64,000 nt of DNA from a bacterium (GCA_041664945.1 JBAYJY010000002.1:8721-72720); one strand, 5' to 3'. Numbered from the stretch's first letter, positions 7,078 to 55,010 are shown. A program made the numbers and translations. The notes: generated by a model not told the origin, from the letters alone.

Positions 7078-8082
7078 TTACAATGAGCCTTTCCAGATAA
7101 AAGAGCCGGAAACATTGATATAGCCGATCTTTCTGCCTGCCATTTCGACGTATATGTAACCGCCGGGTTTTATATCCGCGTCTCTGAATTGAGGATTGAA
7201 CAGGAATTGGCCGTCTTTGACGATGACTCCCCACTTGCCGCTCGATTTCACCGCCGCAAGACCGGAGTTGAATAATGTTACATCGTCGTATTGCGGCGCG
7301 ATCACTACTTTCCCTGATTTATCGATATATCCCCAGCGGTTCCCTTTTGCGATGCCTGCCCGGCCTTCGCGAAAACCTGTCGCTCCGTCGTACTTCGGCG
7401 GGAAAATCATTTTCCCTGTTTTGTCTATATAACCCCATTTGTCTTTGATTCTCACCGCCGCAAGGTTTTCCTCGAATGGTTTCGCCGCATCAAATTTTTG
7501 TTTGAAAGCCTGCTTGCCTGTCGCGTCAATGAACATATACCGGCACTCTGTTTCAGAACACGTGTCAGCGACCGCCGCCAGCCCCTGGGAAAAATCCGAT
7601 GCGTTGTTGAATTTCGAATCGATGACGATCTCTCCGCTTGCGTTTATATAGCCCCATTTCTCGCCGATTTGAACGGGCGCAAGTCCGCCTATGAAGGAGC
7701 CGGCGGCGATATATTGCGGCGCTATAACCACCTCGCCGGATGTGTTAATATAGCCCCACGAGCTGTCGATCTGCGCTCCCGCGAGTCCTTCGGAGAACGG
7801 CATTGTATTCTCGAATTGCGGTTTTATCGTCACGTTGCCTTGCGCGTCGATATAACCCCATTTTGAACCGACGGTCATGTCTGCCAAGCCTTCGGAAAAA
7901 GTTCCGATACCATTATATTTAGGAGGCACGATAACTCGGCCGAGCCTGTCTATCAGCCCCTGTTTGCCGCTGACATATATCAAAAGAAGGTCTTTGCCCG
8001 CGGCTGTGTTATCGGCGCCGAAACATGAGGAAGCGCTTAGAGCCGCCAGCAGCAATAACAGCGAGGCGCTTAACTTTTTCAT
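7078..8082 (-). CDS. secreted WG-repeat (KWG-type) protein
   Basis: 334 aa. The signal peptide is MKKLSASLLLLLAALSASSCFG. About 9 tandem ~35-aa repeats follow, of the form KWGYIDxxGxxVIxPxYD. Confidence 0.8.
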   Translation of the reverse strand: MKKLSASLLLLLAALSASSCFGADNTAAGKDLLLIYVSGKQGLIDRLGRVIVPPKYNGIGTFSEGLADMTVGSKWGYIDAQGNVTIKPQFENTMPFSEGLAGAQIDSSWGYINTSGEVVIAPQYIAAGSFIGGLAPVQIGEKWGYINASGEIVIDSKFNNASDFSQGLAAVADTCSETECRYMFIDATGKQAFKQKFDAAKPFEENLAAVRIKDKWGYIDKTGKMIFPPKYDGATGFREGRAGIAKGNRWGYIDKSGKVVIAPQYDDVTLFNSGLAAVKSSGKWGVIVKDGQFLFNPQFRDADIKPGGYIYVEMAGRKIGYINVSGSFIWKGSL

Positions 8083-8376: not shown

Positions 8377-11300
8377 ATGGCGTCAGCTAAGAAACGCTCA
8401 TTCCGGCTCATATTGTCATTTTTTATCATTTTCATTTCAACACAAGCGGGGGCAAAAGAGCTAAAGCTAACTCAGGGTTGGCAAATAGTAAGTGTTCCGG
8501 TCAAAGCCATCTCGTCAGGCGAAACGCCAAGCGACATAGCGGCAAATACTTCGATATATTCGTATGATGCCGGTCAAGTGGCAGAGGCGGTAGGCAAACC
8601 GCTTGTTTCCGGACGGGGCTATTGGATATACATGCGCGAAGCAAAGACAATAAGCGTCCCCGAAGTGAAGGCCGGACCGGACAGCGCATTCAAGGTGAAA
8701 CTCGAACCGGGCTGGAACATCATCGGAAACCCATACGAATATCCGCTGGACCCGGCTGTGTCGTTGCGCATATCAGGCGCCGCGTTTCAGGACTCGAAGA
8801 AAGTGATTCCCGTTTTGTTGACGTATGACGGCGATAGCGGAACATATCGATACGCGCAGATTCTCGAACAATGGAAGGGGTATTGCGTTTATGCGAATGA
8901 GGCGGCAGAACTGGAGATAATTCCGGCGATATATGAAGGGCCTGTGCCCGATATGCCGGATTTGTATGTGTTTCCGTTTAACGGAGGGGCTCAGATAGCG
9001 GATGCGGGCAACGGGGTAAAGTATGTAGCCGGCCAGTTGATCGCGGCGTTTGGCTCCGGAATTACGTATGAAGAAGCGTCGCGCGTCGCGCGCGAGGCAG
9101 GATTGTCCGTGGCCGGCGGGGATCGCGATGCCGGCGTGTACCAATTACAGATACCGCCGGGAATGAATGCAGAAGCGGCGGAGTCGGCGCTCGCAGCCGC
9201 TGGAGGCGTAATAGAGGTAGCGAAAAATTATCTATTTAAAGTGCAGGCTGTTCCGAATGATCCGGTTTTCACCGTGCCGCCGGTTGCAGGGGCGGGGTGG
9301 GGTTTTGAGAAGATTGGAATGCCGGGACTATGGGCGGAGTTCGCGCCGAAGAACGCGCCGGTTGTCGCCGCGCTTGACACCGGCGTCGACAAAACGCATC
9401 CTGAACTCGCCGGCCGCGTTTTGGAAGGCAGGAACTTCGTGAACTCCTCGGCGGGCGCGGACACGAGTGATGAGAACGGGCATGGAACGCAGGTAGCGGG
9501 GGTGATAGCGGCGGCTGGCAACAACTCGGCGGGCATGGCAGGCGTGTGCTGGAACTGCCGGATTCTGCCGGTGAAGGTGTGCGACGCGTCGGGACAGTGT
9601 CCCATGATGTCGATAATGAACGGAATAAGTTATGCGGCCGACATGAAGGCTCCGATAATAAATCTCGGAATCGGCGGCGACATGCCGCTCGACGACGCTG
9701 CGAAAGCAATAATCAGGATTTATGTAAAGTTGGCCCGGTCGAAGGGATCGATAATTGTGGCGCCCGCCGGGAACTCGTCTACGGACAATTTCGGAACTCT
9801 CACCGGAACGGACTCCGGGGTGGTGAATGTCGCGGCGACGGACGCGAACGACAATCGAGCGACATTCTCGAACTATGGCGGCATGGTAAACGTGGCGGCT
9901 CCAGGAGAGAATATTTATACGACCGATATGAACGGCGGATATAAGACGGTGAGCGGCACATCGATGAGCGCCGCGTTTGTATCGGGCGCGGCGGCGCTGC
10001 TGATTTCCGCAGGCGACAATTTAACTGTTGCGAATGCGATAGACCTGATCGCGGTGACTGTTGACCCGGTAAGCTCGAACGAGCCGATCGGCGGAAGACT
10101 GAACGTATCCTTGGCGATGAAATATTACAGACATTACACAAATAAGGCGCCGGAGATTGTGAATGTCGAAGTGATGCCGGGCGCAACGAACAAATCATAT
10201 ACGCTGAAAGCTAATGTCACCGATCAGGATGGGGACGCAATTACATACAAGTGGGCGGCTGGGAGCGGAGTTTTCAGCGCCGGCGCGGCCCAAAAGACAT
10301 GGACGCTGGACAAAGAGATAAAGGGCGTATACACGATAACGCTGACGGCGACCGACGCTTTCGGAGGCTCTGCTGAAAGCCGCGTTGGCGTGAATGTGAG
10401 CGGAACCGACCCGGCGCAGTTGACGGTGAAGGTCATTGATGCGAACGGCGTGGCGGTGACGGGGGCTATGGCGGAAGTGGGAGGCTCCGGGACGTTCACG
10501 ACCGGAGCGGACGGGCGGTTCTCCGTAAATGCCGGAGCGGCGGACGGCGTTTACGCTATTAAGATAAAGATAATAAAAGAAGGATTTGTCGACAAATTCG
10601 CAACGTTCCGGGTTTTAGCAGGTTCGCTTGAAAACGGAACGCAGAACATGACGGTTGAGCTTGAGCGTACGCCGACAGGTTCTGGAGCGGCGCGAGGACT
10701 TATAGTGCATGCTGACGGCACGACTGACACGGCGCTGCCGTCGAACGGAAGCGCTGCGGCGACGGTGACCGTCGGCGCGACAGACAGGGCTGTAGAGTTC
10801 ATCACGCCCGAGGTTGGCGGCGAACCGGCGAAAGTCGGCATTAAGTTCGGCGATGAAACAGGCGCCGGACCAGGAGCGGCGGCCACGCTCGGAGTTACAG
10901 GCCAAGTCACGGCCTCGATAATTTACGGCGATCCGACATCGGAAAGCGACATATTAAGAATGTTCCCCGGTGAATTTCTGACGAATGGCGACACGGGTTT
11001 CGGCGGTTCGGGAGAAGGCGCGCTTGTAACGGGCGGTTTCGCGCGAATCGATCTGACCGACGCGGCGGGCGCCCCGATCAAGAATTTCGCGGCGGGCGCG
11101 GAGGCGCTGGTGACAATGCGAATGCCGTTCGGCGTGCAGAACCCTGAAACTGGAAAAATGGCGGCGCAGGGCGATACGATTCCGATTCTCTTCTACGACG
11201 AGAATGCTGGCGAATGGATTGTAGAGCATGAAGCGGCCGGCTCGGTGAAACGCGCCGAAATCCAGCAGGACGCGGACGGAATGTTCGTGCAGTTCAAAGT

Positions 11301-14300
11301 GGCGCACCTGACGACATGGAATCTGGATTGGAAATCCATGTTGTGTCCGGAAGGACAGCCGACAATAAAGCTATATGACATGAACGGAATCTCGCTTGCC
11401 GGGCAGTCGGTATATGTGACTATTAACATATCGGGTTGGAACTCATGGCCTAATATAGTAACGGACGGATTTGTAAGTTTCCCAAGGGCGCCCAAGGATA
11501 TAGACTGGCAGTTGTGGGCGCAATGGAACGGATATACGTCAAAAGTGATGACGGTAAAGAATTGCGTTGTAGAGGAAAATCTCCAAGTCGGCCCGTGCGA
11601 TATGAAATGCGGGAACGACGCCGCATGCAGTGATGGGAATAATATGACGTATGACGTCTGCATGAGGCCGGGGCAGTGTACGGCGTCCTGCGTCAACATG
11701 CAATGCGCGCCCGTTTGCAACTCTGACGCCTCCTGCGACGACGGCAAACCGACGACGACGGACACATGCAGGAATGCAGGCGCGTGCGGCGCGTACTGCT
11801 CACACGTTAGCTGCAATGTTGGCTGCGGCTCAGACGCGAACTGCGAGGACGGCGATCCCGACACGCTCGACGTTTGTCTGCTGCCGGGCACATGCAATGC
11901 GACATGCAAAAAATATGACGTTCATTGCGATGTGCAGTTGGATAAAGTGAATTACTTCGCCGGCGATGAGATGCAGATCACTCTGACAGCCGTAAATAAA
12001 GGGCCGGCGGCGGTGACATGCGGAGTGGAGTCGGCGCTGAAAAGGGAACAGTCGATTGCGGTGTGGAATTCTTTCGACGACGGCATTTACATCACAATCG
12101 CTCCGGGTGATTCAGTGACGCAGACAATATATAAAACTATTCCGGACACCTGGGTCGCCACAGATTCCAACGCCGGGTCGGATTATGATTTGTACACAGT
12201 CCGGGAGGATGGAACGCGTTGGGACGGACGCGACAACTTCAACATTCACGTGCACAAGCCATGCGTGGTCGCATGCAAGACGGACGCGGAGTGCGCCGAC
12301 ACAAATCAAAATACTTATGATGTTTGCAAGGCTCCCTATCAATGTTTCTCTGCATGCAATCATCTGACATGCCCAGTGGCATGCGCTTCCGACTACGGCT
12401 GCGATGACGGCAACTCCGCGACAACGGACAGTTGCGCGAACCCGAAAACTTGCGACGCGAAGTGCTTCAACGGCTCGTGCGCGATCAAATGCACAACCAA
12501 TGCCGGATGTGATGACGGCAATCCGATGACCGCCGATTTATGCAGTCAGCCGGGCACATGCTCCTCGGCCTGCGTCAATGCGAACTGCACGCCTGTTTGC
12601 TCGAACGACTCGCAGTGCGACGATACCGATCCGCTCACGAGAGACACATGCGAGAATATCGGTTCGTGCGAAGCGACTTGCGCGCACACTGCCTGTGCGC
12701 CTGCGTGCGAGTTGGACTCGGAATGCGATGACACCGACCCGCTGACGATAGACTCCTGCCTGAATCCGAATACGTGCAATGCAGCCTGTACGCACGTCGC
12801 TTGTTCGCCGATATGTTCTGCTGATGGAGACTGTGACGACAATAATCTGCAAACATTGGATACATGCAAGAATCCGAACACATGCGCCGCTGAGTGCGAA
12901 AACTCGGCATGCACGCCACAATGCACTCAAAACTCTGACTGTAATGACAACAACGCGCTCACGCCTGTCGATGAATGCGTCAATCCGAACACATGCGCCG
13001 CGGAATGCAAAAACTGCACGCCATTCTGCGTAAACGATGTCAAGTGCGATGACTTCAATCTGGCCACGCGCGACAAGTGCGAAAACCCGAACACATGCAG
13101 CGCAACATGCTCCAATACGACATGCACGCCGGCGTGCGTAAATAACGCCGGATGCGACGACGATAACGCAGCTACTGCTGACGAGTGCTCAGCGCCGAAT
13201 ACTTGCGAAGCATTATGTAAAAATGTCGTTCCGGCGTGCAACAATAACGCCGACTGCAACGACAATAATCCGGGAACGGCGGACATCTGCTTGTTTCCGG
13301 GCAAGTTCTCGGCGAAATGCTCCAATACGTACAATTCGGTGTTTGTGTCCACGGCGAAAAACAGTTCGTGCTACATTGATGGCGGAACCGTAAAATGCTG
13401 GGGGTCAAATGGATATGGACAGCTTGGCGACGGCACGACAAATTATTCAGCAACGCTGGTAACTGTCAGTGGAATCACAAATGCGACAGCGCTCACGTCG
13501 GGGACGGACCACACATGCGCTCTGCTTTCCGACGGCGGCGTGAAATGCTGGGGTATAAATGATTACGGAACGCTTGGAAATGGAACGGGGATTGATTCAA
13601 GCGTCCCTGTAAGCGTTACGGATATGATGAACGTTGTTTCGGTTTCAGCAGGAGGCTCAAGCGCATGCGCTGTGATGAGAGACGGCTGGCTGAAATGCTG
13701 GGGGTATAATAAAAACGGAGAACTCGGAGACGGAACAACTAAGAACGCTTTCGTTCCCACGACTGTCGTTGGAATCACGAATGCGATATCCGTTTCGGTC
13801 GGATCCGGCTTTGCTTGCGCGCTTCTCAACAGCGGCGGCGTGAAATGCTGGGGCGATAATGCATTCGGAACTCTTGGGAACGGAACACCGGTCAATTCGT
13901 TATTGCCGGTTGCCGTCAGCGGGATAACCAACGCAGTTTCGGTGTCCGCCGGGAACAAGCAAGCGTGCGCGCTCCTTTCCGGAGGGAGCGTCATGTGCTG
14001 GGGGATGACTATTGTGGACGGGCAATTAAATATTGTGGAAACTCCGATAGAAATGCCCGGCGTAACAAACGCGTCGGCGGTTTCCGTCGGTAGTTTTTAC
14101 GTATGCGCAGTTATATCCGGCGGAAGTATGAAATGCTGGGGTGGCAACACTGAAGGACAGCTTGGGAGTGGCTCTGTTTCCACCATGCTTCCTCCCGCGC
14201 CTGTACCAGTTCTAAACGTCTCTGACGCTGTCAGCATTTCTGCAAGCGTATATCATACATGCGCGTTTCTTGCCTCTGGAAACGTCAAATGCTGGGGGAA

Positions 14301-14460
14301 TAACGATTATGGCAAGCTCGGCAACGGAACTACCGTTAGTTCAGCTACGCCTGTAGATGTGACGGCGTGTTTGACGGATGTCCACTGCGACGACGGCAAT
14401 TCGCAAACTACGGATGTATGCAACAAGCCGGGGCAGCCGGATGCTTATTGTACGCATTGA
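8377..14460 (+). CDS. giant secreted multidomain protein: subtilisin-like (S8) protease, Ig-like domains, Cys-rich repeat arrays and an RCC1-like beta-propeller
   Basis: 2027 aa. The signal peptide is SFRLILSFFIIFISTQAGA, and an SD-like GGGGGAA precedes the ATG. The S8 triad motifs are AALDTGVD (Asp codon 9376-9378), HGTQVAG (His 9481-9483) and GTSMSAAF (Ser 9961-9963). A PKD-like segment lies at ~10165-10400, a carboxypeptidase-regulatory-like segment at ~10417-10615, and a CARDB-like segment at ~11932-12255. Confidence 0.85.
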   Translation: MASAKKRSFRLILSFFIIFISTQAGAKELKLTQGWQIVSVPVKAISSGETPSDIAANTSIYSYDAGQVAEAVGKPLVSGRGYWIYMREAKTISVPEVKAGPDSAFKVKLEPGWNIIGNPYEYPLDPAVSLRISGAAFQDSKKVIPVLLTYDGDSGTYRYAQILEQWKGYCVYANEAAELEIIPAIYEGPVPDMPDLYVFPFNGGAQIADAGNGVKYVAGQLIAAFGSGITYEEASRVAREAGLSVAGGDRDAGVYQLQIPPGMNAEAAESALAAAGGVIEVAKNYLFKVQAVPNDPVFTVPPVAGAGWGFEKIGMPGLWAEFAPKNAPVVAALDTGVDKTHPELAGRVLEGRNFVNSSAGADTSDENGHGTQVAGVIAAAGNNSAGMAGVCWNCRILPVKVCDASGQCPMMSIMNGISYAADMKAPIINLGIGGDMPLDDAAKAIIRIYVKLARSKGSIIVAPAGNSSTDNFGTLTGTDSGVVNVAATDANDNRATFSNYGGMVNVAAPGENIYTTDMNGGYKTVSGTSMSAAFVSGAAALLISAGDNLTVANAIDLIAVTVDPVSSNEPIGGRLNVSLAMKYYRHYTNKAPEIVNVEVMPGATNKSYTLKANVTDQDGDAITYKWAAGSGVFSAGAAQKTWTLDKEIKGVYTITLTATDAFGGSAESRVGVNVSGTDPAQLTVKVIDANGVAVTGAMAEVGGSGTFTTGADGRFSVNAGAADGVYAIKIKIIKEGFVDKFATFRVLAGSLENGTQNMTVELERTPTGSGAARGLIVHADGTTDTALPSNGSAAATVTVGATDRAVEFITPEVGGEPAKVGIKFGDETGAGPGAAATLGVTGQVTASIIYGDPTSESDILRMFPGEFLTNGDTGFGGSGEGALVTGGFARIDLTDAAGAPIKNFAAGAEALVTMRMPFGVQNPETGKMAAQGDTIPILFYDENAGEWIVEHEAAGSVKRAEIQQDADGMFVQFKVAHLTTWNLDWKSMLCPEGQPTIKLYDMNGISLAGQSVYVTINISGWNSWPNIVTDGFVSFPRAPKDIDWQLWAQWNGYTSKVMTVKNCVVEENLQVGPCDMKCGNDAACSDGNNMTYDVCMRPGQCTASCVNMQCAPVCNSDASCDDGKPTTTDTCRNAGACGAYCSHVSCNVGCGSDANCEDGDPDTLDVCLLPGTCNATCKKYDVHCDVQLDKVNYFAGDEMQITLTAVNKGPAAVTCGVESALKREQSIAVWNSFDDGIYITIAPGDSVTQTIYKTIPDTWVATDSNAGSDYDLYTVREDGTRWDGRDNFNIHVHKPCVVACKTDAECADTNQNTYDVCKAPYQCFSACNHLTCPVACASDYGCDDGNSATTDSCANPKTCDAKCFNGSCAIKCTTNAGCDDGNPMTADLCSQPGTCSSACVNANCTPVCSNDSQCDDTDPLTRDTCENIGSCEATCAHTACAPACELDSECDDTDPLTIDSCLNPNTCNAACTHVACSPICSADGDCDDNNLQTLDTCKNPNTCAAECENSACTPQCTQNSDCNDNNALTPVDECVNPNTCAAECKNCTPFCVNDVKCDDFNLATRDKCENPNTCSATCSNTTCTPACVNNAGCDDDNAATADECSAPNTCEALCKNVVPACNNNADCNDNNPGTADICLFPGKFSAKCSNTYNSVFVSTAKNSSCYIDGGTVKCWGSNGYGQLGDGTTNYSATLVTVSGITNATALTSGTDHTCALLSDGGVKCWGINDYGTLGNGTGIDSSVPVSVTDMMNVVSVSAGGSSACAVMRDGWLKCWGYNKNGELGDGTTKNAFVPTTVVGITNAISVSVGSGFACALLNSGGVKCWGDNAFGTLGNGTPVNSLLPVAVSGITNAVSVSAGNKQACALLSGGSVMCWGMTIVDGQLNIVETPIEMPGVTNASAVSVGSFYVCAVISGGSMKCWGGNTEGQLGSGSVSTMLPPAPVPVLNVSDAVSISASVYHTCAFLASGNVKCWGNNDYGKLGNGTTVSSATPVDVTACLTDVHCDDGNSQTTDVCNKPGQPDAYCTH
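9250..10125 (+). other. peptidase S8 (subtilase) catalytic domain of the giant protein
   Basis: The D-H-S triad motifs appear in canonical order and spacing (DTG ... HGT ... GTSMS). Confidence 0.8.
11596..11931 (+). repeat. coding repeat block A: 3 copies of a 36-aa six-cysteine module
   Basis: The three copies are CDMKCGNDAACSDGNNMTYDVCMRPGQCTASCVNMQ, CAPVCNSDASCDDGKPTTTDTCRNAGACGAYCSHVS and CNVGCGSDANCEDGDPDTLDVCLLPGTCNATCKKYDVH. Confidence 0.8.
12262..13332 (+). repeat. coding repeat block B: 10 tandem copies (108-nt period) of the same six-cysteine module
   Basis: The pattern read from the translation is C-x2-x-C-x3-x2-C-[DN]-D-x-[ND]-x2-T-x-D-x-C-x-[NQ]-P-x-[TS]-C-x-A-x-C-x3. An example copy is CSPICSADGDCDDNNLQTLDTCKNPNTCAAECENSA. 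Confidence 0.85.
13364..14364 (+). repeat. seven RCC1-like repeats (predicted 7-blade beta-propeller)
   Basis: There are seven ~50-aa units with [GS]xVKCWGxNxxGxLGxGT ... V ... G[IV]TNAxxVSxGxxxxCAL. Confidence 0.8.
14368..14457 (+). repeat. orphan 14th Cys-rich module at the extreme C-terminus
   Basis: CLTDVHCDDGNSQTTDVCNKPGQPDAYCTH follows the propeller and has the same CDDGNxxTxDxC core. Confidence 0.7.
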
Positions 14461-20991: not shown

Positions 20992-22542
20992 GTGATTTCT
21001 GTTATTATTTGCGCAGTGGATGCCAAGCATGGAACGACAACTTTCATAAGCTCCAAAGCCAATCAACAGCTTTTAATTATTACTGCTGAGCTGGTGATAT
21101 CCTTTGCTCTTATTTATATTTCCGTTTACCTGGACTGGCCTCAGCATGATATTCTGCGTTACGCGATTCTTGTCCCGGTATACCAGGCAGGCGTATATTA
21201 CGGACTCGTCGGCGGAATTATTGCAAGTGTCGTGTCCGTTCTGTCGTTTCTGCCGCTGATACCCGTTGATCCGTTAATTCGAGCCATGTCGTACGGCGTT
21301 CCAACGTTTATTCTGATGCTTGTGTTCATCATTTTCTTCGGCGCCTATATAGGCGCGACCTTAGGCTACGCCCATAAGACACAGAAATACATTGACGGCC
21401 TTTCTCTCGCAATCATGAAAATTGCGCGCGAAGTGGAGACGAGAGATGTAATGATAAAGCTGGCTGAAGAATCTGTCGCCATGCTTGACGCAATGTACGC
21501 GGCCGTTTTTATTGACGGCGCCGCGAAGGAAAACAGTGGCGGCGAGATACTGGCGCTTGAAGCTCAAAGCGGGGAACTCAGATCACTGAAAGATGTGCCC
21601 GAAGACAATGCGCTGATCAGCGCCGCGCGAGAAGGCTTGACGATTGTTTCAAATTCCATCTCCGGGGATTCGCGCCTTCAGTCTTTGCCGGGCGGCGAGT
21701 TGCTGAAAACAGCGGCGATCATCCCCGTGGTCATGAAGGATCGCTCGATAGGCTCGCTGCTTGTGTGCAACAAAAAAAACGGCGACTCTTTCACGGAAGA
21801 AGACTATGCCGTTCTTAAAATGTTAACGGAGGCGACCGCCGGAACCATTCTCAACATAGAGCAGGAGCGAGAGCGGCAGGAGGAAAAACTTCGCGTGGAA
21901 CAGATGAAGGAACTGTTTTCAAGATATGTATCCGCTTCCGTCGCCGACTTCGTTCTTGAGAATCCGGAAATAATGAAAGGCCACTGGCAGGAAGTGACCA
22001 TGCTGGTGTCCGACGTGCGGGATTTTACAAGAATTTCAGAGACTCTTTCTTCAAAAGAGGTTGTGAGGCAGCTAAACGAATACTTCACACGCATGGTGGA
22101 TGTCATTCTCGACCACAAAGGGACGATAGATAAATTCGTGGGCGATTGCATCATCGCCTATTGGGGCGCGCCGGCGCCCGATCCGGAGCATCCGCTCAAC
22201 GCCGCAAGGGCCGCGCTTGCGATGGCCAGGGCTTTGGACCTGATGAACGCCGAATGGCAGGATGAAGACCGCCCTCAGTTCAAAACCGGCATCGCTATTC
22301 ACACCTGCAGGGCGCTAATGGGCAATATCGGCGACGATCGGAAAAAGGCTTTCACTATCATGGGAGAGGAAGTCGAAAAAACCATACAGATCGAAGCCAT
22401 GACGAAAACCCTGAATGCCGGGATCATCGCTACAGATGAAACCTATAAAGCCATTGCGGGGAAAATTGACTGCGAACTGATATCGCAGTCAGGCGCGGCA
22501 GGAATGCAGAAGCTTTACAAAATACAGACTGGACAATGTTGA
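20992..22542 (+). CDS. membrane (4 TM)-GAF-class III nucleotidyl cyclase, Asn/Arg-deficient ('C1-like')
   Basis: 516 aa with a GTG start per the track, which is uncertain. The cyclase motifs VTMLVSDVRDFT and DKFVGDCIIAYWGAP are intact. The canonical GDTVNxASR segment reads GEEVEKTIQ. A GAF-like region contains IIPVVMKDRSIGSLLVCNKKNGDSFTEED. Confidence 0.8.
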   Translation: MISVIICAVDAKHGTTTFISSKANQQLLIITAELVISFALIYISVYLDWPQHDILRYAILVPVYQAGVYYGLVGGIIASVVSVLSFLPLIPVDPLIRAMSYGVPTFILMLVFIIFFGAYIGATLGYAHKTQKYIDGLSLAIMKIAREVETRDVMIKLAEESVAMLDAMYAAVFIDGAAKENSGGEILALEAQSGELRSLKDVPEDNALISAAREGLTIVSNSISGDSRLQSLPGGELLKTAAIIPVVMKDRSIGSLLVCNKKNGDSFTEEDYAVLKMLTEATAGTILNIEQERERQEEKLRVEQMKELFSRYVSASVADFVLENPEIMKGHWQEVTMLVSDVRDFTRISETLSSKEVVRQLNEYFTRMVDVILDHKGTIDKFVGDCIIAYWGAPAPDPEHPLNAARAALAMARALDLMNAEWQDEDRPQFKTGIAIHTCRALMGNIGDDRKKAFTIMGEEVEKTIQIEAMTKTLNAGIIATDETYKAIAGKIDCELISQSGAAGMQKLYKIQTGQC

Positions 22543-23390
22543 TGCTGTTAAAATACAGGGCGACGGAATCGTTTTACGAGGGTTTTCAAAAAACCAACAT
22601 TTTCGCCGACAGAACCGTGCGAATCACTGCTTTTATCTTTGTCATCGCCGGGCTGATCGACATTCCCTTCAAATTTATATTCCCCGCCGGTTTCAAATCA
22701 GAACTGGGCTCCATGCTCGTTTTTATCCTGTTGATTTTTCCCATATCCACGCGCCTTATCGGCGGAATATCGCGAGCGTCATGGAAATTGTATGCCGGAT
22801 TCGGGATATTCTTTCTTTCCGGGCTGATCCCGACATTATGGGGCTCGCCGGTTTTTCTTCTATTAATGATTCCCTCGGTTTGCTTTCTGGCGCTTCTTCT
22901 TCGCGCCGAGCCCGGCATTCTTCGCAGTTTCGGTTATTCGGAGAAACCGCTTGGCATGCGCGAAGTTCTTATAGCGCTGCTGACGTTTAGTCTATTCGCT
23001 CTTTTCACCTACATAGCGACGGTAATGGTGCAGAAGTCAAAATTCATTCTTCATTCTCCCATATCATATCTGTTGCAGTTTCTTATCGTAGTCCCCGAAT
23101 ACCTTGTTGCATGGGGCATCTTATACGGAGTTTTGATGAAACGTCTGTTGGAGCTGAAATTTGAGCCGATGGTTCCGATTTTTCTCAACATTGTTTTCAC
23201 GCTTGTATGGTGGGTTTCCACAGCGGTCAATGTCAAAGACCCGGGCATGATGTTTGCCGGGATATTCGCATGGGCCATAGCAGTGCATATGATTTCAGGA
23301 ATGGCCTATTATTTCACGGGATCCGTAAGGCCGGTTTTATTTGCGTGGTCGCTGAACTACATTGTTTTTGTCGCTTCATCCGTAACATGA
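22536..23390 (+). CDS. polytopic membrane protein, CPBP (CAAX-protease/Abi)-like fold lacking catalytic residues
   Basis: 284 aa. It overlaps the upstream cyclase by 7 nt. The segment VVPEYLVAWGILYGVLMKRL ... FTLVWW ... GMAYYFTGSVRPVLFAWSLNY parallels CPBP motifs EExxxRG / FxxxH / HxxxN, but the Glu/Arg/His positions are substituted. Confidence 0.5.
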   Translation: MLMLLKYRATESFYEGFQKTNIFADRTVRITAFIFVIAGLIDIPFKFIFPAGFKSELGSMLVFILLIFPISTRLIGGISRASWKLYAGFGIFFLSGLIPTLWGSPVFLLLMIPSVCFLALLLRAEPGILRSFGYSEKPLGMREVLIALLTFSLFALFTYIATVMVQKSKFILHSPISYLLQFLIVVPEYLVAWGILYGVLMKRLLELKFEPMVPIFLNIVFTLVWWVSTAVNVKDPGMMFAGIFAWAIAVHMISGMAYYFTGSVRPVLFAWSLNYIVFVASSVT

Positions 23391-23402
23391 GGGCGCGCAG
23401 CC

Positions 23403-24308
23403 ATGAGTGTTGAAAAAATCGATATCGCGTCTGAAGTCGCCGCGCTGAAATTCAGAACGGGCAGTTTTGACGTCTGGAAAAAAACAAACCTGCTCAGGGA
23501 ACCGATATTCATACATGCTGTTCTCATAATTGCGCTTTATGGCATCGGGAACGCTGTTGTTCAGATATTATTCAAAACAAACCATATATCATTTTCATTA
23601 AAAGAGGCTTCATATCCTTTATTGTATCTATCTCCTATACTTGGAGGTTTGTACATTGCCGGCGGTTTGAACAGACACAGCGTCTGCATCTCTGTCGTTT
23701 ATATGTTTTTATACGCTCTATTTGAATATGTGATTAGCCAATATTTTCACAGTATTCAATCAATTGTCGGAATATTTCAATTTATTCCCGGATGCGCTCT
23801 GATAGTTTGGTGGATAGTGACCAAACCTGAAATTATGGGCAAGCTCGGCATGAAAAAATCCGACTCTCTGACGGTTTCACTGTATGCTTTTATTTTGATT
23901 CTGATCATTGCCTCCTATGCGGCGCACCTTCTTATTGTATATGGTTTCAAGTTGGAGTTCAGGCCAGTTGAAATGGCAGCGTATTTTTTAGGCAATTTCA
24001 TAACCTGCTTGTTTGTTACCAGCTATTGTTTCGGCATGTGGAACCTGCTGAAGAAGCGAGGCGCAAACACATTTCAGGGTATTCTGGCGCTCATGGCGCT
24101 TTTCGGCCTCATAGAGGCCCCGGTCATGATAGCTTTTGCGCTTATTGGAATAGCGAGCCCGGCGATGGCGGTTGCCGGCATCGTCTTGAACTTGATGCTT
24201 ACATTGACCGTGATGCACTTTTCCTTCAGCGCGCTGAAAAACTCATTGACGGCGACATTCCTGTTGGCGATGGTCATGCTGCTTTTGAAGGCGGCGGGGG
24301 TTTTCTAA
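23403..24308 (+). CDS. polytopic membrane protein, second degenerate CPBP-like paralog
   Basis: 301 aa, starting 12 nt after the previous gene. It has 8 hydrophobic helices. The C-terminal half (CFGMWNLLKKRG ... HFSFSALKNSLTATFLLAMV) has the same topology, and I see no intact metalloprotease motif. Confidence 0.45.
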   Translation: MSVEKIDIASEVAALKFRTGSFDVWKKTNLLREPIFIHAVLIIALYGIGNAVVQILFKTNHISFSLKEASYPLLYLSPILGGLYIAGGLNRHSVCISVVYMFLYALFEYVISQYFHSIQSIVGIFQFIPGCALIVWWIVTKPEIMGKLGMKKSDSLTVSLYAFILILIIASYAAHLLIVYGFKLEFRPVEMAAYFLGNFITCLFVTSYCFGMWNLLKKRGANTFQGILALMALFGLIEAPVMIAFALIGIASPAMAVAGIVLNLMLTLTVMHFSFSALKNSLTATFLLAMVMLLLKAAGVF

Positions 24309-24334
24309 AACCGACAGCAGCGCCGGAAAGCCTG

Positions 24335-25801
24335 ATGATGGAACGAAAGAAAAAAATACTTTTTATAATTATCTCAAGCGCGCTATGTCTTGTGGCGACA
24401 ATGAGCGCTCACTATTGGGATATGCCGATGTGCGTGTGGACGAGCCCTCTCGTCGCAGTTCCCGTCGTCTATGCGGGAATCCATTTCCGGCGCGCCGGTT
24501 CCGCCGCCACGGCTTTCATTTTGTTAGTCGCGCAGGTGCCGGTAATACTCATATACGCTTCGCGGCATCTTGAAGGAGGAACGAAGTATTTCACATCTAT
24601 TGTGACGGCTTTGATCGTTGCGATATATGTGGGTCACAGGCAGCGGAAGAGCAGGGATAATTCCCGGCATCTCAACAAAATACACGACACGGTCAGGCGG
24701 ATTCAGCAGAATATCGAACCGAAACTCCTTCTTTCTGAACTGGAGGAACAGTTTAAGGAAATAGGAAGCGCTGATTCGGTTGAAATCTGTCTGCTGGACC
24801 AGGAAGGCATTCTAAGAGAATACAAATCCGGCGAGGAAGTGTCTCCGGACGACCACGCTTACTATAAGATTCTCAAGAATAGGAATTTTGTCGTAAGCGC
24901 CAATGTTCCGAACGATGCGCGTTTTGAGTATATCGGAGGAATGGAAAAAAACGACGCGGCGGAGCAGTTCGCGATATTTCCAATCGAGTATGGAGGCGCG
25001 GCAAGAGGAGTGATATCCATAATCGAATCAAGAGACGGGAGGCTGGGCAAAGAAGAGATTACATTTCTCAACGCGTACAAAAAAGCCATTGAAAATGCCC
25101 TTGAGGTTGTTGAGAAACGAGAGGATAAAATCAAGCACGAGCTTCAGAAGAAACGGATTAGAGACACGTTTTCATCCTATGTGTCGAGAAGCGTCGCCGA
25201 GGAGATATTAAAGGACCCCGACAAGCTTGAGCTTGGAGGGAAAAGCCAGATCGTAACCGTGATGTTCACCGAGATTGTGAATTTCAAGGCGCTTCAGAAG
25301 ACTGTGGAGCCGTCGTTGCTGTTTGACTCCCTTAATGAATATTTCGCCGCCGCGATTGACACTATATTCGAATACGACGGAACTCTGGACAAGTTCATAG
25401 GAGATAACGTCATGGCATTCTGGGGGGCGCCGATTCCAATGCCGGACAGCGAACTGAGAGCCGTTCAGTGCGCGTTGAGTTTGAATAGAAAGGTCAGCGA
25501 ACTAAATTCCCGTTGGAGACAGGAAGGTAGGGAGGAGTTCATTTTCTCGATAGGAATAAACTCGGGGGAAGTGGTTGCGGGCAACATTGGAAGCATTCGA
25601 CGCATGGAATATACGATCATTGGAGACACCGTCAATACGGCCTCGCGAATAAAATCTATCTCTATATCGAAAAGCATCCCGATATTGGTTGGAGAAACGA
25701 CATTTCAAAAAGTTAAAGACAGGGTTCAAATCGTTGAAAGATACGATGCGACTGTCAAAGGAAAAGCGGAAGCGATATCAGTATATCAACTGTCAGTGTG
25801 A
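24335..25801 (+). CDS. membrane (4 TM)-GAF-class III nucleotidyl cyclase, canonical Asn/Arg ('C2-like'), Glu at first metal-Asp position
   Basis: I chose the start at ATG 24335 (MMERKKKILFII), because the track ORF's 5' extension from 24026 overlaps the previous gene. Motifs are VTVMFTEIVNFKAL (Glu where Asp is expected), DKFIGDNVMAFWGAP and YTIIGDTVNTASRIKS. Confidence 0.8.
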   Translation: MMERKKKILFIIISSALCLVATMSAHYWDMPMCVWTSPLVAVPVVYAGIHFRRAGSAATAFILLVAQVPVILIYASRHLEGGTKYFTSIVTALIVAIYVGHRQRKSRDNSRHLNKIHDTVRRIQQNIEPKLLLSELEEQFKEIGSADSVEICLLDQEGILREYKSGEEVSPDDHAYYKILKNRNFVVSANVPNDARFEYIGGMEKNDAAEQFAIFPIEYGGAARGVISIIESRDGRLGKEEITFLNAYKKAIENALEVVEKREDKIKHELQKKRIRDTFSSYVSRSVAEEILKDPDKLELGGKSQIVTVMFTEIVNFKALQKTVEPSLLFDSLNEYFAAAIDTIFEYDGTLDKFIGDNVMAFWGAPIPMPDSELRAVQCALSLNRKVSELNSRWRQEGREEFIFSIGINSGEVVAGNIGSIRRMEYTIIGDTVNTASRIKSISISKSIPILVGETTFQKVKDRVQIVERYDATVKGKAEAISVYQLSV

Positions 25802-25936: not shown

Positions 25937-26485
25937 TCATTTCGGTCGCAAATCAATGTAGTAATTATCGCCTTGGCCGGAGGAGGGCGGCTGCGTTCCG
26001 CCGGTTCCTTCCTTCTGCGTGGCTTTGAGTTTTTCGATTTCAGCTTTCTGTTTTTCGAGTTCTTCCTGCAGTTTCTTAAGCTGTTCGGGCTCGACGTAAT
26101 CAGCCGGTTTCCCGCCGGCTACGCCTGCGGCCTGACCGCCCTGCGCAGCAACGTTTGAGGCGGCGTTCAAGCTCATTCTGGCGGCGCCTCTGTTTATCGC
26201 CACGCTGCCCGCCTGGCCGATTAATGGCCTTACTTCGTTCTCGGGATTCTTCTCTCCCTGCCCGGAGTTGCTCTGCTGCATTCCGGCCGGTTTTGTTTCA
26301 TATATGCCTTCCCGATAGTCTATTATTTCACTTTCCTTGGTCTGGATATCCGTTTTCCCCTGCGGCTCGAAGTAAGCGATCGACAACATGCCGACAAAGA
26401 TTATGATCAGCATGAAACAGAAGTCGATGTAAGGCATCAGAAAAGTGACGCGTTTTTTGCTACCCTTGCTGCTTTCTTGCTTCAT
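25937..26485 (-). CDS. ExbD/TolR-like transmembrane protein with non-canonical low-complexity/coiled-coil periplasmic part
   Basis: 182 aa. The N-terminal TM VTFLMPYIDFCFMLIIIFVGM matches the ExbD pattern PFIDVMLVLLIIFMV, including the conserved Asp. The remainder is Gln/Gly/Ala-rich plus a coiled coil (EQLKKLQEELEKQKAEIEKLK). Confidence 0.55.
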   Translation of the reverse strand: MKQESSKGSKKRVTFLMPYIDFCFMLIIIFVGMLSIAYFEPQGKTDIQTKESEIIDYREGIYETKPAGMQQSNSGQGEKNPENEVRPLIGQAGSVAINRGAARMSLNAASNVAAQGGQAAGVAGGKPADYVEPEQLKKLQEELEKQKAEIEKLKATQKEGTGGTQPPSSGQGDNYYIDLRPK

Positions 26486-27515
26486 AGCCGAATAACATGT
26501 TCAAGATAATCGAGAGCACAAGACCGGTGATGGTCGGCTCGATTTTGACGTAAATGCCATAGCCTATCGCATTGATGTCTCGCTGCGCGATGGCCGGCCC
26601 GATGAGAAGGCCGAGCCCGAACAGCGTACAGATCAGACCCGCGCCCTGCGCGGTTGACGCCATGGTTACAAGCTTGTCCTCATAAGTTTCGGTGGAGACC
26701 AAACCGATCGCCGAAGTAATTAGAATGACGATGCATACCCACCATGTGCTGAGCATGTAGTTGATTGCCAGAACCATGCAGACCGTTAGGAAGAAACCGA
26801 TTACGATCATGTCCTTCCAGCCTTCGGGTTTGCCGCGCACTGCGCCGTGAATCGTCCGGATTATCCACAACAGGCCGATGACAACCCACGCGATCAGCAC
26901 ATAAGGTTTGAGTTTCTTTGTGACCTGGTCTTTTCTCGCTTTTGCGATGATCGGCGCGAGAGGGTTGCCATGCTTTTCGCCGGACAGAATCGTTTCCTTG
27001 CCGGGTTTGTTGTAAGCTTTAATCTTCTCAGGGTCCAGCGTCAGCGCCATCGCATGCTTATTTTCCTCGACCCGGAAAAAGCCGCTTTCCGCAGTGGCTG
27101 CAAGAGGGATCATAGTCCTGTCGCCGTATAAAAAGGGAGATATGGGCAGTATCCTCTGAGTATCGCCGAGGTCGATTTCAGGATTGTTGATTGCCATCCT
27201 GATAGTGCGTCCGCCGGGAAAAGTTATCTCAGCCATCTGGTCTTTTTTATACCATGTAACATCAGCGCGCAACGCCTCCGCCACGAAACGAAGCGGCACA
27301 AAGATAATTCCGCCTCTTTCCACGGGCGTCACGTCGGGCGTGACTACTTGTTTGTTCACAATGATCGTATAGTCGCTGCGCACCTTGATGTCGCCGCCGA
27401 GCGCTTCTTCGGCCATATTGGCAGCCTGCGGCGTGATATCGACAGCAAACGCCGGCAGCGCCGCAAAAATCAAAAAAATCAGGATCAATAAGGTTTTTAT
27501 CCGCAAAAGCCTCAT
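26460..27515 (-). CDS. fusion of a copper-amine-oxidase-N-terminal-like ('stalk') domain with a MotA/TolQ/ExbB-like channel
   Basis: I chose ATG 27515 (MRLLRIKTLLILIFLIFAALPAFA), which is preceded by GAGGAAAGGAA; the track start is GTG 27557. The N-domain reads IIVNKQVVTPDVTPVERGGIIFVPLRFVAEALRADVTWY...DRTMIPLAATAESGF. The C-terminal 3 TM contain AGLICTLFGLGLLIGPAIA and GIYVKIEPTITGLVLSIILN, which is ExbB-like. Confidence 0.6.
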   Translation of the reverse strand: MRLLRIKTLLILIFLIFAALPAFAVDITPQAANMAEEALGGDIKVRSDYTIIVNKQVVTPDVTPVERGGIIFVPLRFVAEALRADVTWYKKDQMAEITFPGGRTIRMAINNPEIDLGDTQRILPISPFLYGDRTMIPLAATAESGFFRVEENKHAMALTLDPEKIKAYNKPGKETILSGEKHGNPLAPIIAKARKDQVTKKLKPYVLIAWVVIGLLWIIRTIHGAVRGKPEGWKDMIVIGFFLTVCMVLAINYMLSTWWVCIVILITSAIGLVSTETYEDKLVTMASTAQGAGLICTLFGLGLLIGPAIAQRDINAIGYGIYVKIEPTITGLVLSIILNMLFGYEARKQQG

Positions 27516-27536
27516 TTCCTTTCCTCTGTCTGGTTG

Positions 27537-27555
27537 GGCGAACACAAGGTTCGCC
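27537..27555 (-). other. intercistronic hairpin (GGCGAAC-cuugu-GUUCGCC)
   Basis: A perfect 7-bp stem with a 5-nt loop lies between the stop of the 83-aa gene (27557-27559) and the SD/ATG of the ExbB-like gene. Confidence 0.5.
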
Positions 27556-27556
27556 A

Positions 27557-27808
27557 CTATGTTTCTTCCGTCTCTATTATCACTTCTTTACGCAGCAGTT
27601 CTTTTGCTGTGAATTCATCCTTATCGAGTGTAAAAATTGGTATATCCACCTGTGACTCGGCAAGCGGATAATTCATTGTAGAAGCGGCATTCTCCTTTAC
27701 GTAGCAGCGTATGCCGTTTGCTTCCAGCAAGCCTTTGATTATATTTGCCTCTTGAATCCCTATCGCCGAATACACTTTGACCCATTTCATGTCTTTTCCG
27801 TGGTCCAT
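27557..27808 (-). CDS. small DUF2007-like protein
   Basis: 83 aa. KVYSAIGIQEANIIKGLLEANGIRCYVKE...VDIPIFTLDKDEFTAKELL resembles the DUF2007 small domain. Its start abuts the stop of the upstream SRPBCC gene. Confidence 0.45.
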   Translation of the reverse strand: MDHGKDMKWVKVYSAIGIQEANIIKGLLEANGIRCYVKENAASTMNYPLAESQVDIPIFTLDKDEFTAKELLRKEVIIETEET

Positions 27809-28369
27809 TCAGCTCTTCACTTTTCTCCGCGCGGCTCGCGTCTCCTCGCGGCACATGGATTCCACAATGCTGAACACCTTCTCGAAGTTCGGTTTCGTCA
27901 TCCTCAGCAGTATTTGCTCGACGAGCGCCGAAACCGGCATCGCAAGCTGCGAGGGCAGGCCGGGTATTCCGTTCGCGTTGATCCTTATGACTCCTTCGAT
28001 CAGGACCGTCGTCCGGCCGGGCGTTTTCTCGTTAAAAAACCAGCGACCGCTGATGTCCACGTTGTCTTTGAAAAAAAGCGCCTCCGTCTCGTAGTCGCAC
28101 GTCCAGTGCGTGGTGTCCCACGTCTGTATGCTATGCCAGATCAACTGCCGCTTGCTCAGAATCGGCTTGAGCAGCGCCGGAATCGGCGCCTCGGCGGTCA
28201 CTTCTGAAACAACGCGCTGGCGGCAATCGCTCTCGAAGCAGTCATCAACGATCCTGCAGCCGGCCATTTGCGGCAGCTTGCAGTTGATCTCCACCTGCCG
28301 GTCCCTAAGAAGATCGAACACAAGCTTTCGGGGCGCGTTTATCTCACGCTCGAATTTTGTCTTCACCAT
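27809..28369 (-). CDS. SRPBCC (START/polyketide-cyclase-like) family protein
   Basis: 186 aa. The N-terminus MVKTKFEREINAPRKLVFDLLRD is typical of SRPBCC ligand-binding proteins. The assignment is by pattern only. Confidence 0.45.
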   Translation of the reverse strand: MVKTKFEREINAPRKLVFDLLRDRQVEINCKLPQMAGCRIVDDCFESDCRQRVVSEVTAEAPIPALLKPILSKRQLIWHSIQTWDTTHWTCDYETEALFFKDNVDISGRWFFNEKTPGRTTVLIEGVIRINANGIPGLPSQLAMPVSALVEQILLRMTKPNFEKVFSIVESMCREETRAARRKVKS

Positions 28370-36919: not shown

Positions 36920-37330
36920 TCAATCGAATAGACGTTTTGTGAGCGGCAGTTTTTCGAGCACGTTTGTCGCTTTGTCTATGACGTCGAAAGCGCGTTCGAT
37001 CTGCTTCATGCTGTCTTCCATCCGCGACGCCATTTTTTCGAGCCGCACAGTAAGCTCGCCGACGCGGTCGAACGTCACGTTCATCCGCTCCATGACGTCG
37101 TCCATCTTGTCGAAAGTTGAGCTGACCTGATTGAGCGTGCCGTCGATCTTGTCCACAGCGTTGCCTGTCTTATCGATAGTGAAATCGATCTTGCCGATGG
37201 AATTATCCGCGGCTGAAATCACTTCCGATGTGCTGTCTATAGTCGTGTCGAGTTTCGAAATCGCCTTTTCGAGGCGTTTAATAATTTTCTCAAACCGCTC
37301 GAACGCTTTAAATGGCTGAAAAATTTCCAA
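36920..37330 (-). CDS. hypothetical helical-repeat (hendecad-like) coiled-coil protein
   Basis: 136 aa with no hydrophobic segment. About nine 11-residue periods are visible (KLDTTIDSTSE/VISAADNSIGK/IDFTIDKTGNA/VDKIDGTLNQV...). Confidence 0.45.
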   Translation of the reverse strand: MEIFQPFKAFERFEKIIKRLEKAISKLDTTIDSTSEVISAADNSIGKIDFTIDKTGNAVDKIDGTLNQVSSTFDKMDDVMERMNVTFDRVGELTVRLEKMASRMEDSMKQIERAFDVIDKATNVLEKLPLTKRLFD

Positions 37331-52923: not shown

Positions 52924-52960
52924 TTCCGTTTACGGCGCGTATGTTTTTGTGTTCGATTCG

Positions 52961-52990
52961 AGGGCGCGATTTTTTTGATCGCGCCCTTTT
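52961..52990 (+). terminator. rho-independent terminator / intercistronic hairpin
   Basis: The sequence is AGGGCGCGAT-ttttttg-ATCGCGCCCTTTTCG, a 10-bp stem followed by a T-run. Confidence 0.7.
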
Positions 52991-53033
52991 CGATAGATGG
53001 ATTTTTTCAAAACGAGGACAAAGGTGTCGGATA

Positions 53034-54551: not shown

Positions 54552-55010
54552 ATGAAGCAGATTCCGAATCCACGAAAAACATTCGGCGTTATTTTCATCG
54601 CCATGTTCCTGTCATGCGCTCTTTATGCTTTTCTCGGCAACGTAATAGCCGGACACAGAGTTCCGGCTGAAGGCAATGGCGTGGAAACAATAAAGTTGAT
54701 TTTTTCGATAGCCGCCGCGGGCGCTTTTTTATTCGGTCTGCAATGGCCGCGATTCGCTTTGACGGAAGAGAAGCTGCGCTCGAAGGGTAACAGGGCGGAG
54801 GCAATGAAGCTGGTTCAGAAAACTGCGATCAATTCGCTTGCCTGTATTGAGTCTGTCGCGATATTTGGCCTTATGTGGTCGTTCATTGCATCCGAAGTGA
54901 AGCAGCTTCCGTATTCGTCCGGCTTTGCGATGCTTACGATGCTGTATTTGCGGATGCAGATAAACGGATATTTTGATAAGGTTGAAAGCCTTTTCCCCAT
55001 GGATAAATAG
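54552..55010 (+). CDS. hypothetical small membrane protein (4 TM)
   Basis: 152 aa with four hydrophobic segments. I recognise no motif. Confidence 0.45.
   Translation: MKQIPNPRKTFGVIFIAMFLSCALYAFLGNVIAGHRVPAEGNGVETIKLIFSIAAAGAFLFGLQWPRFALTEEKLRSKGNRAEAMKLVQKTAINSLACIESVAIFGLMWSFIASEVKQLPYSSGFAMLTMLYLRMQINGYFDKVESLFPMDK

Follow-up and report, generated by a model that had tools for sequence, protein, structure and literature searches.

The DNA considered here, hereafter the window, is a stretch of 64,000 nucleotides from a bacterium (GCA_041664945.1, JBAYJY010000002.1:8721-72720), and its positions 25,937 to 28,369 hold four genes on the minus strand. The last two of these, here called A and B, encode a candidate channel subunit and its membrane-anchored partner. 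It is highly probable that both belong to the MotAB/ExbBD superfamily, and we consider it reasonably likely that together they make a very divergent MotAB/ExbBD/TolQR ion-driven complex, a '5:2 motor', which would work by the mechanism proposed below; the full picture deserves about that degree of confidence or somewhat less. An earlier reading made from the sequence alone, here termed the original prediction, had described an atypical ExbB/ExbD-type pair with a Cu_amine_oxidN1 domain on the channel subunit. That description is supported by the hhalign comparison of B, by the Foldseek matches and threonines of A, and by the co-occurrence of the two genes. The features of the locus, in the order of the minus strand, are as follows.

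27809..28369, minus strand: SRPBCC (START/Bet v 1-like) gene encoding a cytoplasmic protein of 186 residues (open reading frame; Pfam match of an orthologue; Foldseek)
27557..27808, minus strand: DUF2007 gene encoding a small cytoplasmic protein of 83 residues (open reading frame; PF09413)
27537..27555, no strand: 7-bp hairpin, lying in the spacer that separates the stop codon of DUF2007 from the ribosome-binding site of A (inverted-repeat check)
26460..27515, minus strand: gene A, a channel-subunit candidate of 351 residues with a signal peptide, a Cu_amine_oxidN1 domain and five predicted transmembrane helices (open reading frame; ribosome-binding site; homologues; AlphaFold 2 model)
27444..27515, minus strand: Sec-type signal peptide of A, MRLLRIKTLLILIFLIFAALPAFA (basic n-region, hydrophobic core, AFA)
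27060..27359, minus strand: periplasmic Cu_amine_oxidN1 ('stalk', D1-like) domain of A (PF07833; Foldseek)
26697..26927, minus strand: transmembrane helices 1-3 of A (AlphaFold 2 secondary structure; hydrophobic segments and loop charges)
26466..26684, minus strand: MotA/ExbB-like core of A, comprising two long C-terminal transmembrane helices (sub-threshold PF01618 match; hhalign; Foldseek; conservation)
25937..26485, minus strand: gene B, encoding an ExbD/TolR/MotB-like subunit of 182 residues (open reading frame, overlapping A by 26 nucleotides)
26369..26437, minus strand: transmembrane helix of B, MPYIDFCFMLIIIFVGMLSIAYF, with Asp21 near its cytoplasmic end (codon 26423-26425) (alignment; hhalign; PDB)
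26087..26368, minus strand: periplasmic juxtamembrane segment of B, acidic and conserved to a moderate degree, then a Gly/Ala/Gln-rich tether of low complexity (alignment)
26009..26086, minus strand: predicted coiled coil of B, EQLKKLQEELEKQKAEIEKLKATQKE (homologue survey; weak Pfam coiled-coil matches)
25946..25972, minus strand: C-terminal motif of B, GDNYYIDLR (39 of 39 homologues)

The tight packing that had been predicted is borne out by open reading frames at 25937-26485, 26460-27557, 27557-27808 and 27809-28369. As also predicted, the SRPBCC and DUF2007 genes are contiguous (boundary 27809/27808) and A overlaps B by 26 nucleotides, the ATG of B at 26485 lying within the last codons of A (...GYEARKQQG and stop). 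Two overlapping genes, in the canonical A-then-B order, each resemble the matching subunit of one machine. The two are translationally coupled and strictly co-inherited.

Gene B retains the ExbD-type transmembrane helix, with its aspartate, that the original prediction had assigned to it: PYIDFCFMLIIIF contains the Asp, and MPYIDFCFMLIIIF is invariant in 39 of 39 sequences. Across the homologue alignment the entire segment SFLMPYIDFCFMLIIIFxGMLSIAYFEP is practically invariant. The N-terminus of B is basic and lies inside, and the Asp is found close to the cytoplasmic face, as in ExbBD; a single N-terminal helix with a conserved Asp so placed, encoded directly after the A gene, is what marks a B subunit of the ExbD/TolR/MotB type. 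Comparison by hhalign of the family profile with the single E. coli ExbB, TolQ and MotA sequences gave nothing significant, and for this reason profiles were built from 71 (TolQ) and 51 (TolR) metagenome loci. The resulting TolQ+ExbB profile holds 73 sequences, namely 71 metagenome TolQ together with E. coli TolQ and ExbB, and the TolR+ExbD profile holds 51. Against the latter B aligned with a Prob of 80-82% and P 1.1e-5, a score reached by none of 120 shuffles; MPYIDFCFMLIIIFV of B falls on VPYIDVMLVLLVIFM, and its Asp on D23 of TolR. A TolR hidden Markov model (HMM) run over the 632 six-frame open reading frames of the window returned B as its top match. In Pfam, B scores 13.3 bits against ExbD (PF02472; E 0.09), and the curated cut-off of 25.4 is not reached. 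On grounds of sequence comparison the evidence that B is homologous to TolR/ExbD/MotB is good.

When the B profile was searched against 177,635 PDB sequences, the two best matches were C. jejuni MotB chains, aligned from the transmembrane helix through the plug region, and two B homologues have weak Pfam matches to MotB_plug. These results would suit a variant stator of the MotAB type, acting on a flagellar or other cytoplasmic rotor. Such a role is the least probable of the explanations considered here, since A has no cytoplasmic torque-generating domain with which to contact FliG, B has no OmpA-like peptidoglycan-binding domain, and flagellar genes are absent from the window and from the flanks of related loci.

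Beyond the helix, the folded periplasmic domain of an ExbD-type protein had been predicted to be replaced in B, and indeed low-complexity sequence and a 26-residue E/K/L-rich helix are found there. The periplasmic part varies among B homologues from 106 to 191 residues. A helix free of proline and glycine and rich in E/K/L (median 28 residues) occurs in 37 of 39 homologues, and all 39 carry the tether and the terminal pattern [GST][ND]xx[YF][ILM]DL[RG], placed 1-19 residues from the C-terminus. In one homologue the spacer consists purely of GPGE repeats and the coiled coil is missing, and the terminal motif is still present.

Gene A begins with a signal peptide, in agreement with the signal or anchor sequence originally proposed, and an equivalent N-terminus occurs in nearly all full-length homologues; a few are 5'-truncated. 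The domain that follows is matched by PF07833 at residues 67-166 with E 6.3e-19 and 68.4 bits (cut-off 24.2), as it is in all 39 members of the A family (35 of 35 and 4 of 4). In the AlphaFold 2 (AF2) model of A, which has a mean predicted local distance difference test score (pLDDT) of 84, Foldseek relates the N-terminal domain to the N-terminal domain (D1) of E. coli amine oxidase with prob 1.0. The copper-amine-oxidase stalk domain of the original prediction is therefore clearly present, although its proposed length of about 170 residues is not: the Pfam match covers about 100 residues of a periplasmic part of about 160.

The predicted count of three ExbB/MotA-like transmembrane helices in A has to be revised. 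Five are predicted by AF2, at residues 211-241, 246-267, 271-287, 292-325 and 328-364, all of them after the periplasmic domain, and only the last two match the MotA/ExbB core. The hairpin of TM2 and TM3 (residues 246-287), with a loop of about 15 residues, occupies the position at which ExbB, TolQ and MotA have their cytoplasmic domain; in the AF2 model no cytoplasmic domain is present between the first transmembrane helix and the core helices. A signal peptide followed by five transmembrane helices would place the Cu_amine_oxidN1 domain outside and the C-terminus of A inside. The last two helices would then cross the membrane outwards and back inwards in turn, as TM2 and TM3 of ExbB do. Directly before TM1 lies a strongly basic stretch (KARKDQVTKKLKP; IIAKARKDQVTKKLKP) at 26880-26927, corresponding to residues 203-218 of the 365-residue open reading frame.

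The relationship of A to the MotA/ExbB family rests on several lines that converge on these last two helices. Residues 295-357 of A match MotA_ExbB (PF01618) at profile positions 48-112 with E 0.053 and 13.7 bits, against a cut-off of 22.9. Within the A family MotA_ExbB is the recurrent Pfam match outside the N-terminal domain (30 of 35 and 3 of 4 members), and it always falls on the last two helices. Against the TolQ+ExbB profile, hhalign gave a score of 27.8 (P 1.6e-3, Prob 16%). None of 120 column or block shuffles reached this score (mean 15-16, ±3, maximum 25), and the reversed profile scored 22.3. The segment KLVTMASTAQGAGLICTLFGL of A aligns with FLATVGSxSPYVGLFGTVWGI and, in an extended alignment, PTITGL with ATAIGL. 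Two threonines of A, T311 (...GLICTLFGL...), conserved in 35 of 35 sequences, and T342 (...KIEPTITGL...), a threonine in 32 and a serine in two, fall on the positions of TolQ T145/T178 and ExbB T148/T181, the pore threonines of those proteins. Finally, the membrane matches of A in Foldseek are ExbB (5zfp_B; E 0.029, prob 0.97), TolQ (9kq0_A; prob 0.95), ZorA, PomA and MotA; the only other membrane matches listed are ESX-3 chains, with no MFS or other folds among them. The case for A as a MotA/ExbB relative is coherent when these lines are taken jointly, each of them being weak individually.

A number of observations weigh against the motor interpretation. Although the C-terminal transmembrane region of A does match MotA/ExbB profiles, the absence of which the original prediction had named as fatal to it, all such matches, in 33 of 39 family members, are sub-threshold (best E 9e-4), and the curated Pfam score is never reached. 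The three profile searches that had been proposed thus gave a divided answer, PF07833 being clear whilst PF01618 and PF02472 stay below their cut-offs. The hhalign Prob for A is low, and the Foldseek matches to ExbB and TolQ have weak E-values (0.03-0.1) and TM-scores of about 0.3. An exhaustive HMMER search with a profile of the A membrane region, over 1.84 billion representatives, returned 10 clusters, none of which differed in architecture or linked the family to canonical MotA/ExbB. Whole-protein and membrane-only profiles of A, run by HMMER against PDB sequences, never matched ExbB or MotA; the best match of the membrane-only profile was to the transmembrane helices of NorA, an MFS transporter, at E 0.02, so that HMMER E-values of this size for A are no better than noise from transmembrane composition. 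A also lacks the cytoplasmic domain that all characterised A subunits have, and no Pfam match to a folded periplasmic domain, whether of the ExbD/TolR C-terminal fold or of the OmpA-like peptidoglycan-binding type, was obtained for B. The basic stretch before TM1 would stand on the periplasmic side of the membrane, in violation of the positive-inside rule; to judge from the sequence it faces the acidic juxtamembrane segment of B, with which it may associate. Scans of A and B against NCBIfam gave no matches, and the membrane parts of the A-B family are annotated by no family model.

Several of these points would be explained if the pair were no motor at all. A would then be an unrelated five-helix anchor displaying a wall-binding-type domain, B a bitopic coiled-coil protein, and their likeness to motor subunits a product of transmembrane composition; the two might form a scaffold or other structural complex in the envelope, or else act simply as a channel or sensor. 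The sub-threshold Pfam matches of the membrane parts, the failure of HMMER profiles to reach canonical families, the NorA match, and the hhalign result for A (Prob 16%, with a reversed control of 22 against 28) all suit this explanation. It is nevertheless improbable, because two independent proteins point to matching subunits of one machine, in canonical order and with translational coupling. Moreover, the Asp of B and both threonines of A are conserved at aligned positions, where they were counted as invariant; A subunits of 5:2 complexes are the sole coherent membrane set returned by Foldseek; and the hhalign cross-controls of A against TolR (P 0.24) and of B against TolQ (P 0.04) are not significant.

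The motor interpretation also draws on the distribution of the two genes. Homologues of A form 35 clusters among 5.8 billion proteins, all full length and annotated with PF07833 alone; homologues of B form 56 clusters, many of them on contigs that match in length those with A. The pair is present in 12 GTDB species genomes, all of them metagenome-assembled genomes of unclassified 'bacterium', among them UBP15_UBA6099, ADurb.Bin236 and a bin from the DeMMO deep mine. The candidate phylum UBP15 comprises six genomes, recovered from digesters, wastewater and vents, whose GC content is 51-60% (PMC11382960); that of the window is about 52%. Both A and B are seen at 11 of the 12 genome loci, the contig of the remaining one (L011) ending just after A, and at two others (L003, L010) B is cut by the contig end. 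Taking the 12 genome loci with three metagenome loci, A and B stand together wherever the contig continues, and in most loci they overlap by 23-32 nucleotides.

The four-gene set, whose neighbourhoods the original prediction had proposed to survey, is present at most loci. The order SRPBCC, zero to two DUF2007 genes, A and B recurs across the 12 genome loci: an SRPBCC gene lies upstream in 10 of the 12, and DUF2007 genes directly upstream of A in seven of 12 by tblastn or eight of 12 by clustering of open reading frames. Two tandem DUF2007 genes precede A at L006, L007 and L008, whilst L005 has one such gene and an unassigned 113-residue open reading frame in the same position (about 7370-7900 in these loci, but 131-654 in L008); the window has one. 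No further gene is conserved across the 12 loci besides SRPBCC, DUF2007, A and B. In particular, a conserved third partner downstream of B was sought and rejected, as the genes found there differ by locus (AAA+DUF4143, a nucleotidyl transferase, AAA_21, a methyltransferase).

One distant subclade (P0020, P0027), which includes a 1.6-Mb contig, qualifies the conservation of the four-gene set, for it has A and B without SRPBCC or DUF2007. Here a conserved TPR protein of 540-595 residues, 43% identical between loci, is encoded directly downstream of B, and the window contains no homologue of it.

L096 11926-13542, L097 10336-12123 and L098 11776-13563, no strand given: TPR gene downstream of B in the distant subclade

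Since TPR domains often bind terminal peptides, this protein might serve as receptor to the C-terminal motif of B, a suggestion that is speculative. HicA and HicB, a toxin-antitoxin pair, are encoded within a few kb of A-B in the same subclade (L097 3536-3972; L098 424-860) and are probably unrelated.

The same survey bears on whether the pair is simply the fast-evolving TolQR or ExbBD orthologue of its lineage, doing an ordinary Tol or Ton job with partners encoded elsewhere. The hosts look diderm, an OEP/TolC-type gene lying near the pair in L002 and SurA-like chaperones being encoded in the window, and these two observations together suggest a diderm host; the transmembrane helix of B is nearest to the TolR/ExbD consensus; and the TPR gene following B in one subclade loosely recalls cpoB of the tol-pal operon. 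Against this, the absence of an adjacent TonB, Pal, TolA or flagellar stator partner, noted in the original prediction, extends to the whole 64-kb window, in which scans and six-frame open reading frames revealed no TonB, TolA, TolB, Pal, MotAB or flagellar gene, and TonB, TolA, TolB and Pal are equally absent from flanks of ±8-10 kb at 15 related loci. B is missing the periplasmic domain through which ExbD and TolR contact TonB or TolA, A has lost the cytoplasmic domain and gained an exported one, and the family stands isolated from canonical TolQ/ExbB in the exhaustive search. An ordinary Tol or Ton function is accordingly a distinctly remote prospect.

Recruitment into Zorya-type or other anti-phage defence on a MotAB-type motor, a possibility raised in the original prediction, found no support. 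ZorAB sets a precedent for the use of these motors in defence, ZorA occurs among the weak structural matches of A, an AbiEii-like AAA_21 gene lies downstream at one locus and HicAB near another. However, a PADLOC search with the four proteins gave no match at E≤1, and the role was rejected on this result; conserved effector-like neighbours are missing, no ZorC/ZorD-like or nuclease gene was found, A has no long cytoplasmic tail, and the context is one of housekeeping genes differing by locus, with the pair conserved vertically within one lineage. A defence module is very improbable, only a little less so than a stator.

The Pfam scan of the 186-residue protein of the window gave no match, yet its SRPBCC label proves right: the orthologue at L012 passes the thresholds of DUF2505 and Polyketide_cyc, and an AF2 model of the window protein (pLDDT 75) is matched in Foldseek by ARO/CYC proteins (ZhuI, TcmN), START and PYL at E 1e-7, placing it in the superfamily by fold. 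The 83-residue protein matches DUF2007 (PF09413) at E 4.5e-7, with 30.4 bits against a cut-off of 25.7. Both are probably cytoplasmic accessories for ligand sensing or regulation and not core parts, and both are dispensable in one subclade.

The starts of A and B deserve comment. The mechanical open reading frame of A runs from a GTG at 27557 (26460-27557, minus strand, 365 residues), but an ATG at 27515, preceded by the strong ribosome-binding site GAGGAAAGGAA, is from the sequence the likely true start and gives a protein of 351 residues. A spacer of 41 nucleotides then separates A from the stop codon of DUF2007 (TAG, ending at 27557) and holds the hairpin followed by GAGGAAAGGAA-ATG; it is the choice of this start that places the hairpin inside the spacer. 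The 7-bp hairpin predicted before the ExbB-like gene is real as a perfect inverted repeat (27537-27543/27549-27555, 5-nucleotide loop), of a size that is only mildly unexpected by chance alone. The mRNA strand shows no T-run after this repeat, which is therefore not an intrinsic terminator; a role as terminator or attenuator was rejected on this ground and in view of the short spacer before a strong ribosome-binding site. For B, public gene calls begin at Met17 (P0036, 166 residues) and drop the basic N-terminus (MKQE...KKRxSFL) common to most homologues. The upstream start is favoured because the conserved, basic KKRxSFL precedes Met17, and the Met17 start is, from the alignment, probably an annotation error.

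The remainder of the window is made up of ordinary chromosomal genes, among them an MFS transporter, a YedY-like protein, an amidohydrolase, Ham1, a SpoT-like protein, rplM/rpsI, argC and two adenylate cyclases. The cyclases, at 20992-25801 on the plus strand, are paralogous, membrane-anchored class III adenylate/guanylate cyclases, one with a GAF domain; the second is convergent with gene B, and between them lie two multi-helix membrane proteins without Pfam match (22536-23390 and 23403-24308). At 8377-14460 (plus strand) an open reading frame of 2027 residues looks to encode a protease of very large size, secreted or displayed on the surface: it joins a subtilase (Peptidase_S8) domain to PKD/Big_9 Ig-like domains and has an RCC1-repeat β-propeller at its C-terminus. 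Two SurA-N/PPIase proteins, both extended by a TPR segment, are encoded in tandem at 50935-54467 (plus strand) and are consistent with a diderm envelope. They are followed by open reading frames of 152 residues (54552-55010) and 965 residues (55061-57958), both without Pfam match, and by a gene at 58047-59708 (plus strand) for a RACo-type reductive activator of corrinoid proteins (Fer2, Raco_middle and RACo_C_ter), which hints at corrinoid-dependent (Wood-Ljungdahl or methyltransferase) metabolism. A coiled-coil protein of 136 residues at 36920-37330 (minus strand) has many Pfam matches below cut-off, including FliD_C, Flagellin_C and MCPsignal, which are probably generic coiled-coil noise.

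If A and B do form a 5:2 motor, a ring of A would surround a dimer of B, and the flow of protons or sodium ions along the Asp/Thr pathway would drive a relative rotation or conformational change. Because A has almost no cytoplasmic mass, a transmembrane hairpin standing in place of its cytoplasmic domain, the output of the motor would be periplasmic. The exported Cu_amine_oxidN1 domains of A may fix the ring to the cell wall or to a partner, and would in that case take over the anchoring from the peptidoglycan-binding domain missing in B; as PF07833 is typical of cell-wall hydrolases and predicted to bind the wall, it may be the ring that is anchored. The periplasmic part of B would serve as a TonB/TolA-like tether, composed of the acidic juxtamembrane segment, the variable spacer, a dimerising coiled coil and the terminal peptide. 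This terminal ...YIDLR would engage an envelope target or, alternatively, the A domains themselves as a plug. B would in this way combine an axle and a TonB/TolA-like tether in one protein. The most specific version, in which anchoring is inverted such that five Cu_amine_oxidN1 domains fix the A ring to the wall or to a partner whilst the B dimer moves and transmits force through a terminal β-strand motif, is a tentative suggestion and on balance unlikely. Were it true, the core of such a motor would need neither a cytoplasmic domain on A nor a folded periplasmic domain on B. The pair may, as the original prediction proposed, have a role in an undescribed envelope process.

The 5:2 ion-driven motors (MotAB, ExbBD, TolQR, GldLM, ZorAB) are a small set of machines which carry inner-membrane energy elsewhere in the cell, and to our knowledge the recognition of each new variant has brought to light a further coupled process. 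A stripped-down family which keeps the ion-pathway residues helps to define the minimal motor core, and a wall-binding-type module on the ring subunit bears on the question of which part of a motor turns and which is held. The impact is limited by the rarity of the family and its restriction to uncultured candidate-phylum bacteria. The literature describes PF07833 as a domain found in cell-wall hydrolases, with a predicted or putative wall-binding role (PMC4137172; bioRxiv 10.64898/2026.09.23.753664), and no paper linking PF07833 to ExbB or MotA was found in the library searched.

Amongst known systems, ExbB-ExbD and TolQ-TolR are closest to A-B. The gene order is A then B, the Asp helix of B departs little from the TolR/ExbD consensus, a diderm host is probable, and the last two helices of A carry GxxxT...TxxGL-type motifs with both pore threonines, A being N-out and C-in. 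By contrast, A has five transmembrane helices and essentially no cytoplasmic domain, and a cleavable signal peptide precedes its exported Cu_amine_oxidN1 domain; B is without a folded periplasmic domain; TonB or TolA is not adjacent; and the PF01618 and PF02472 cut-offs are missed. Members of an ExbB/TolQ 'generic ion transporter' clade are known to acquire extra N- or C-terminal domains, for example DUF3450 and DUF2341 (PMC12505986). Parallels with MotA-MotB and PomA-PomB lie in the best PDB matches of the B profile, which are to MotB and cover the transmembrane helix, the Asp and the segment after it, in the overlapping genes, and in the Foldseek matches to MotA and PomA. Here, however, B has no OmpA-like domain, A has no FliG-contacting cytoplasmic domain, the context is not flagellar, and anchoring would reside on A instead of B if the A domain binds the wall.

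The likeness to GldL-GldM and PorL-PorM of gliding and type IX secretion is one of concept: output reaches the periplasm through a long, dimeric B-like extension whilst the A-like ring stays in the membrane. GldM spans the periplasm with folded domains, whereas in B a disordered tether leads through a short coiled coil to a terminal peptide; GldL, unlike A, has two transmembrane helices and a cytoplasmic domain, and no sequence or structural match of A or B to GldLM was obtained. TonB and TolA offer an analogy only, B sharing with them an N-terminal transmembrane anchor, a variable low-complexity spacer and a conserved C-terminal element. No homology of B to either was detected; its anchor helix is an Asp-bearing axle and not a peripheral SHLS helix, and its C-terminal element is a nine-residue motif and not a folded domain. 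ZorA-ZorB likewise exemplifies non-canonical recruitment of a MotAB-type pair, with ZorA among the weak Foldseek matches, but A-B has no PADLOC match, ZorA tail, peptidoglycan-binding ZorB domain or ZorC/D/E effectors. Set beside these systems, A-B is a new combination and not a new class of machine: an exported wall-binding-type domain is borne by a five-helix A subunit without a cytoplasmic domain, and is paired with a B subunit in which a short terminal motif is present and a folded domain is not.

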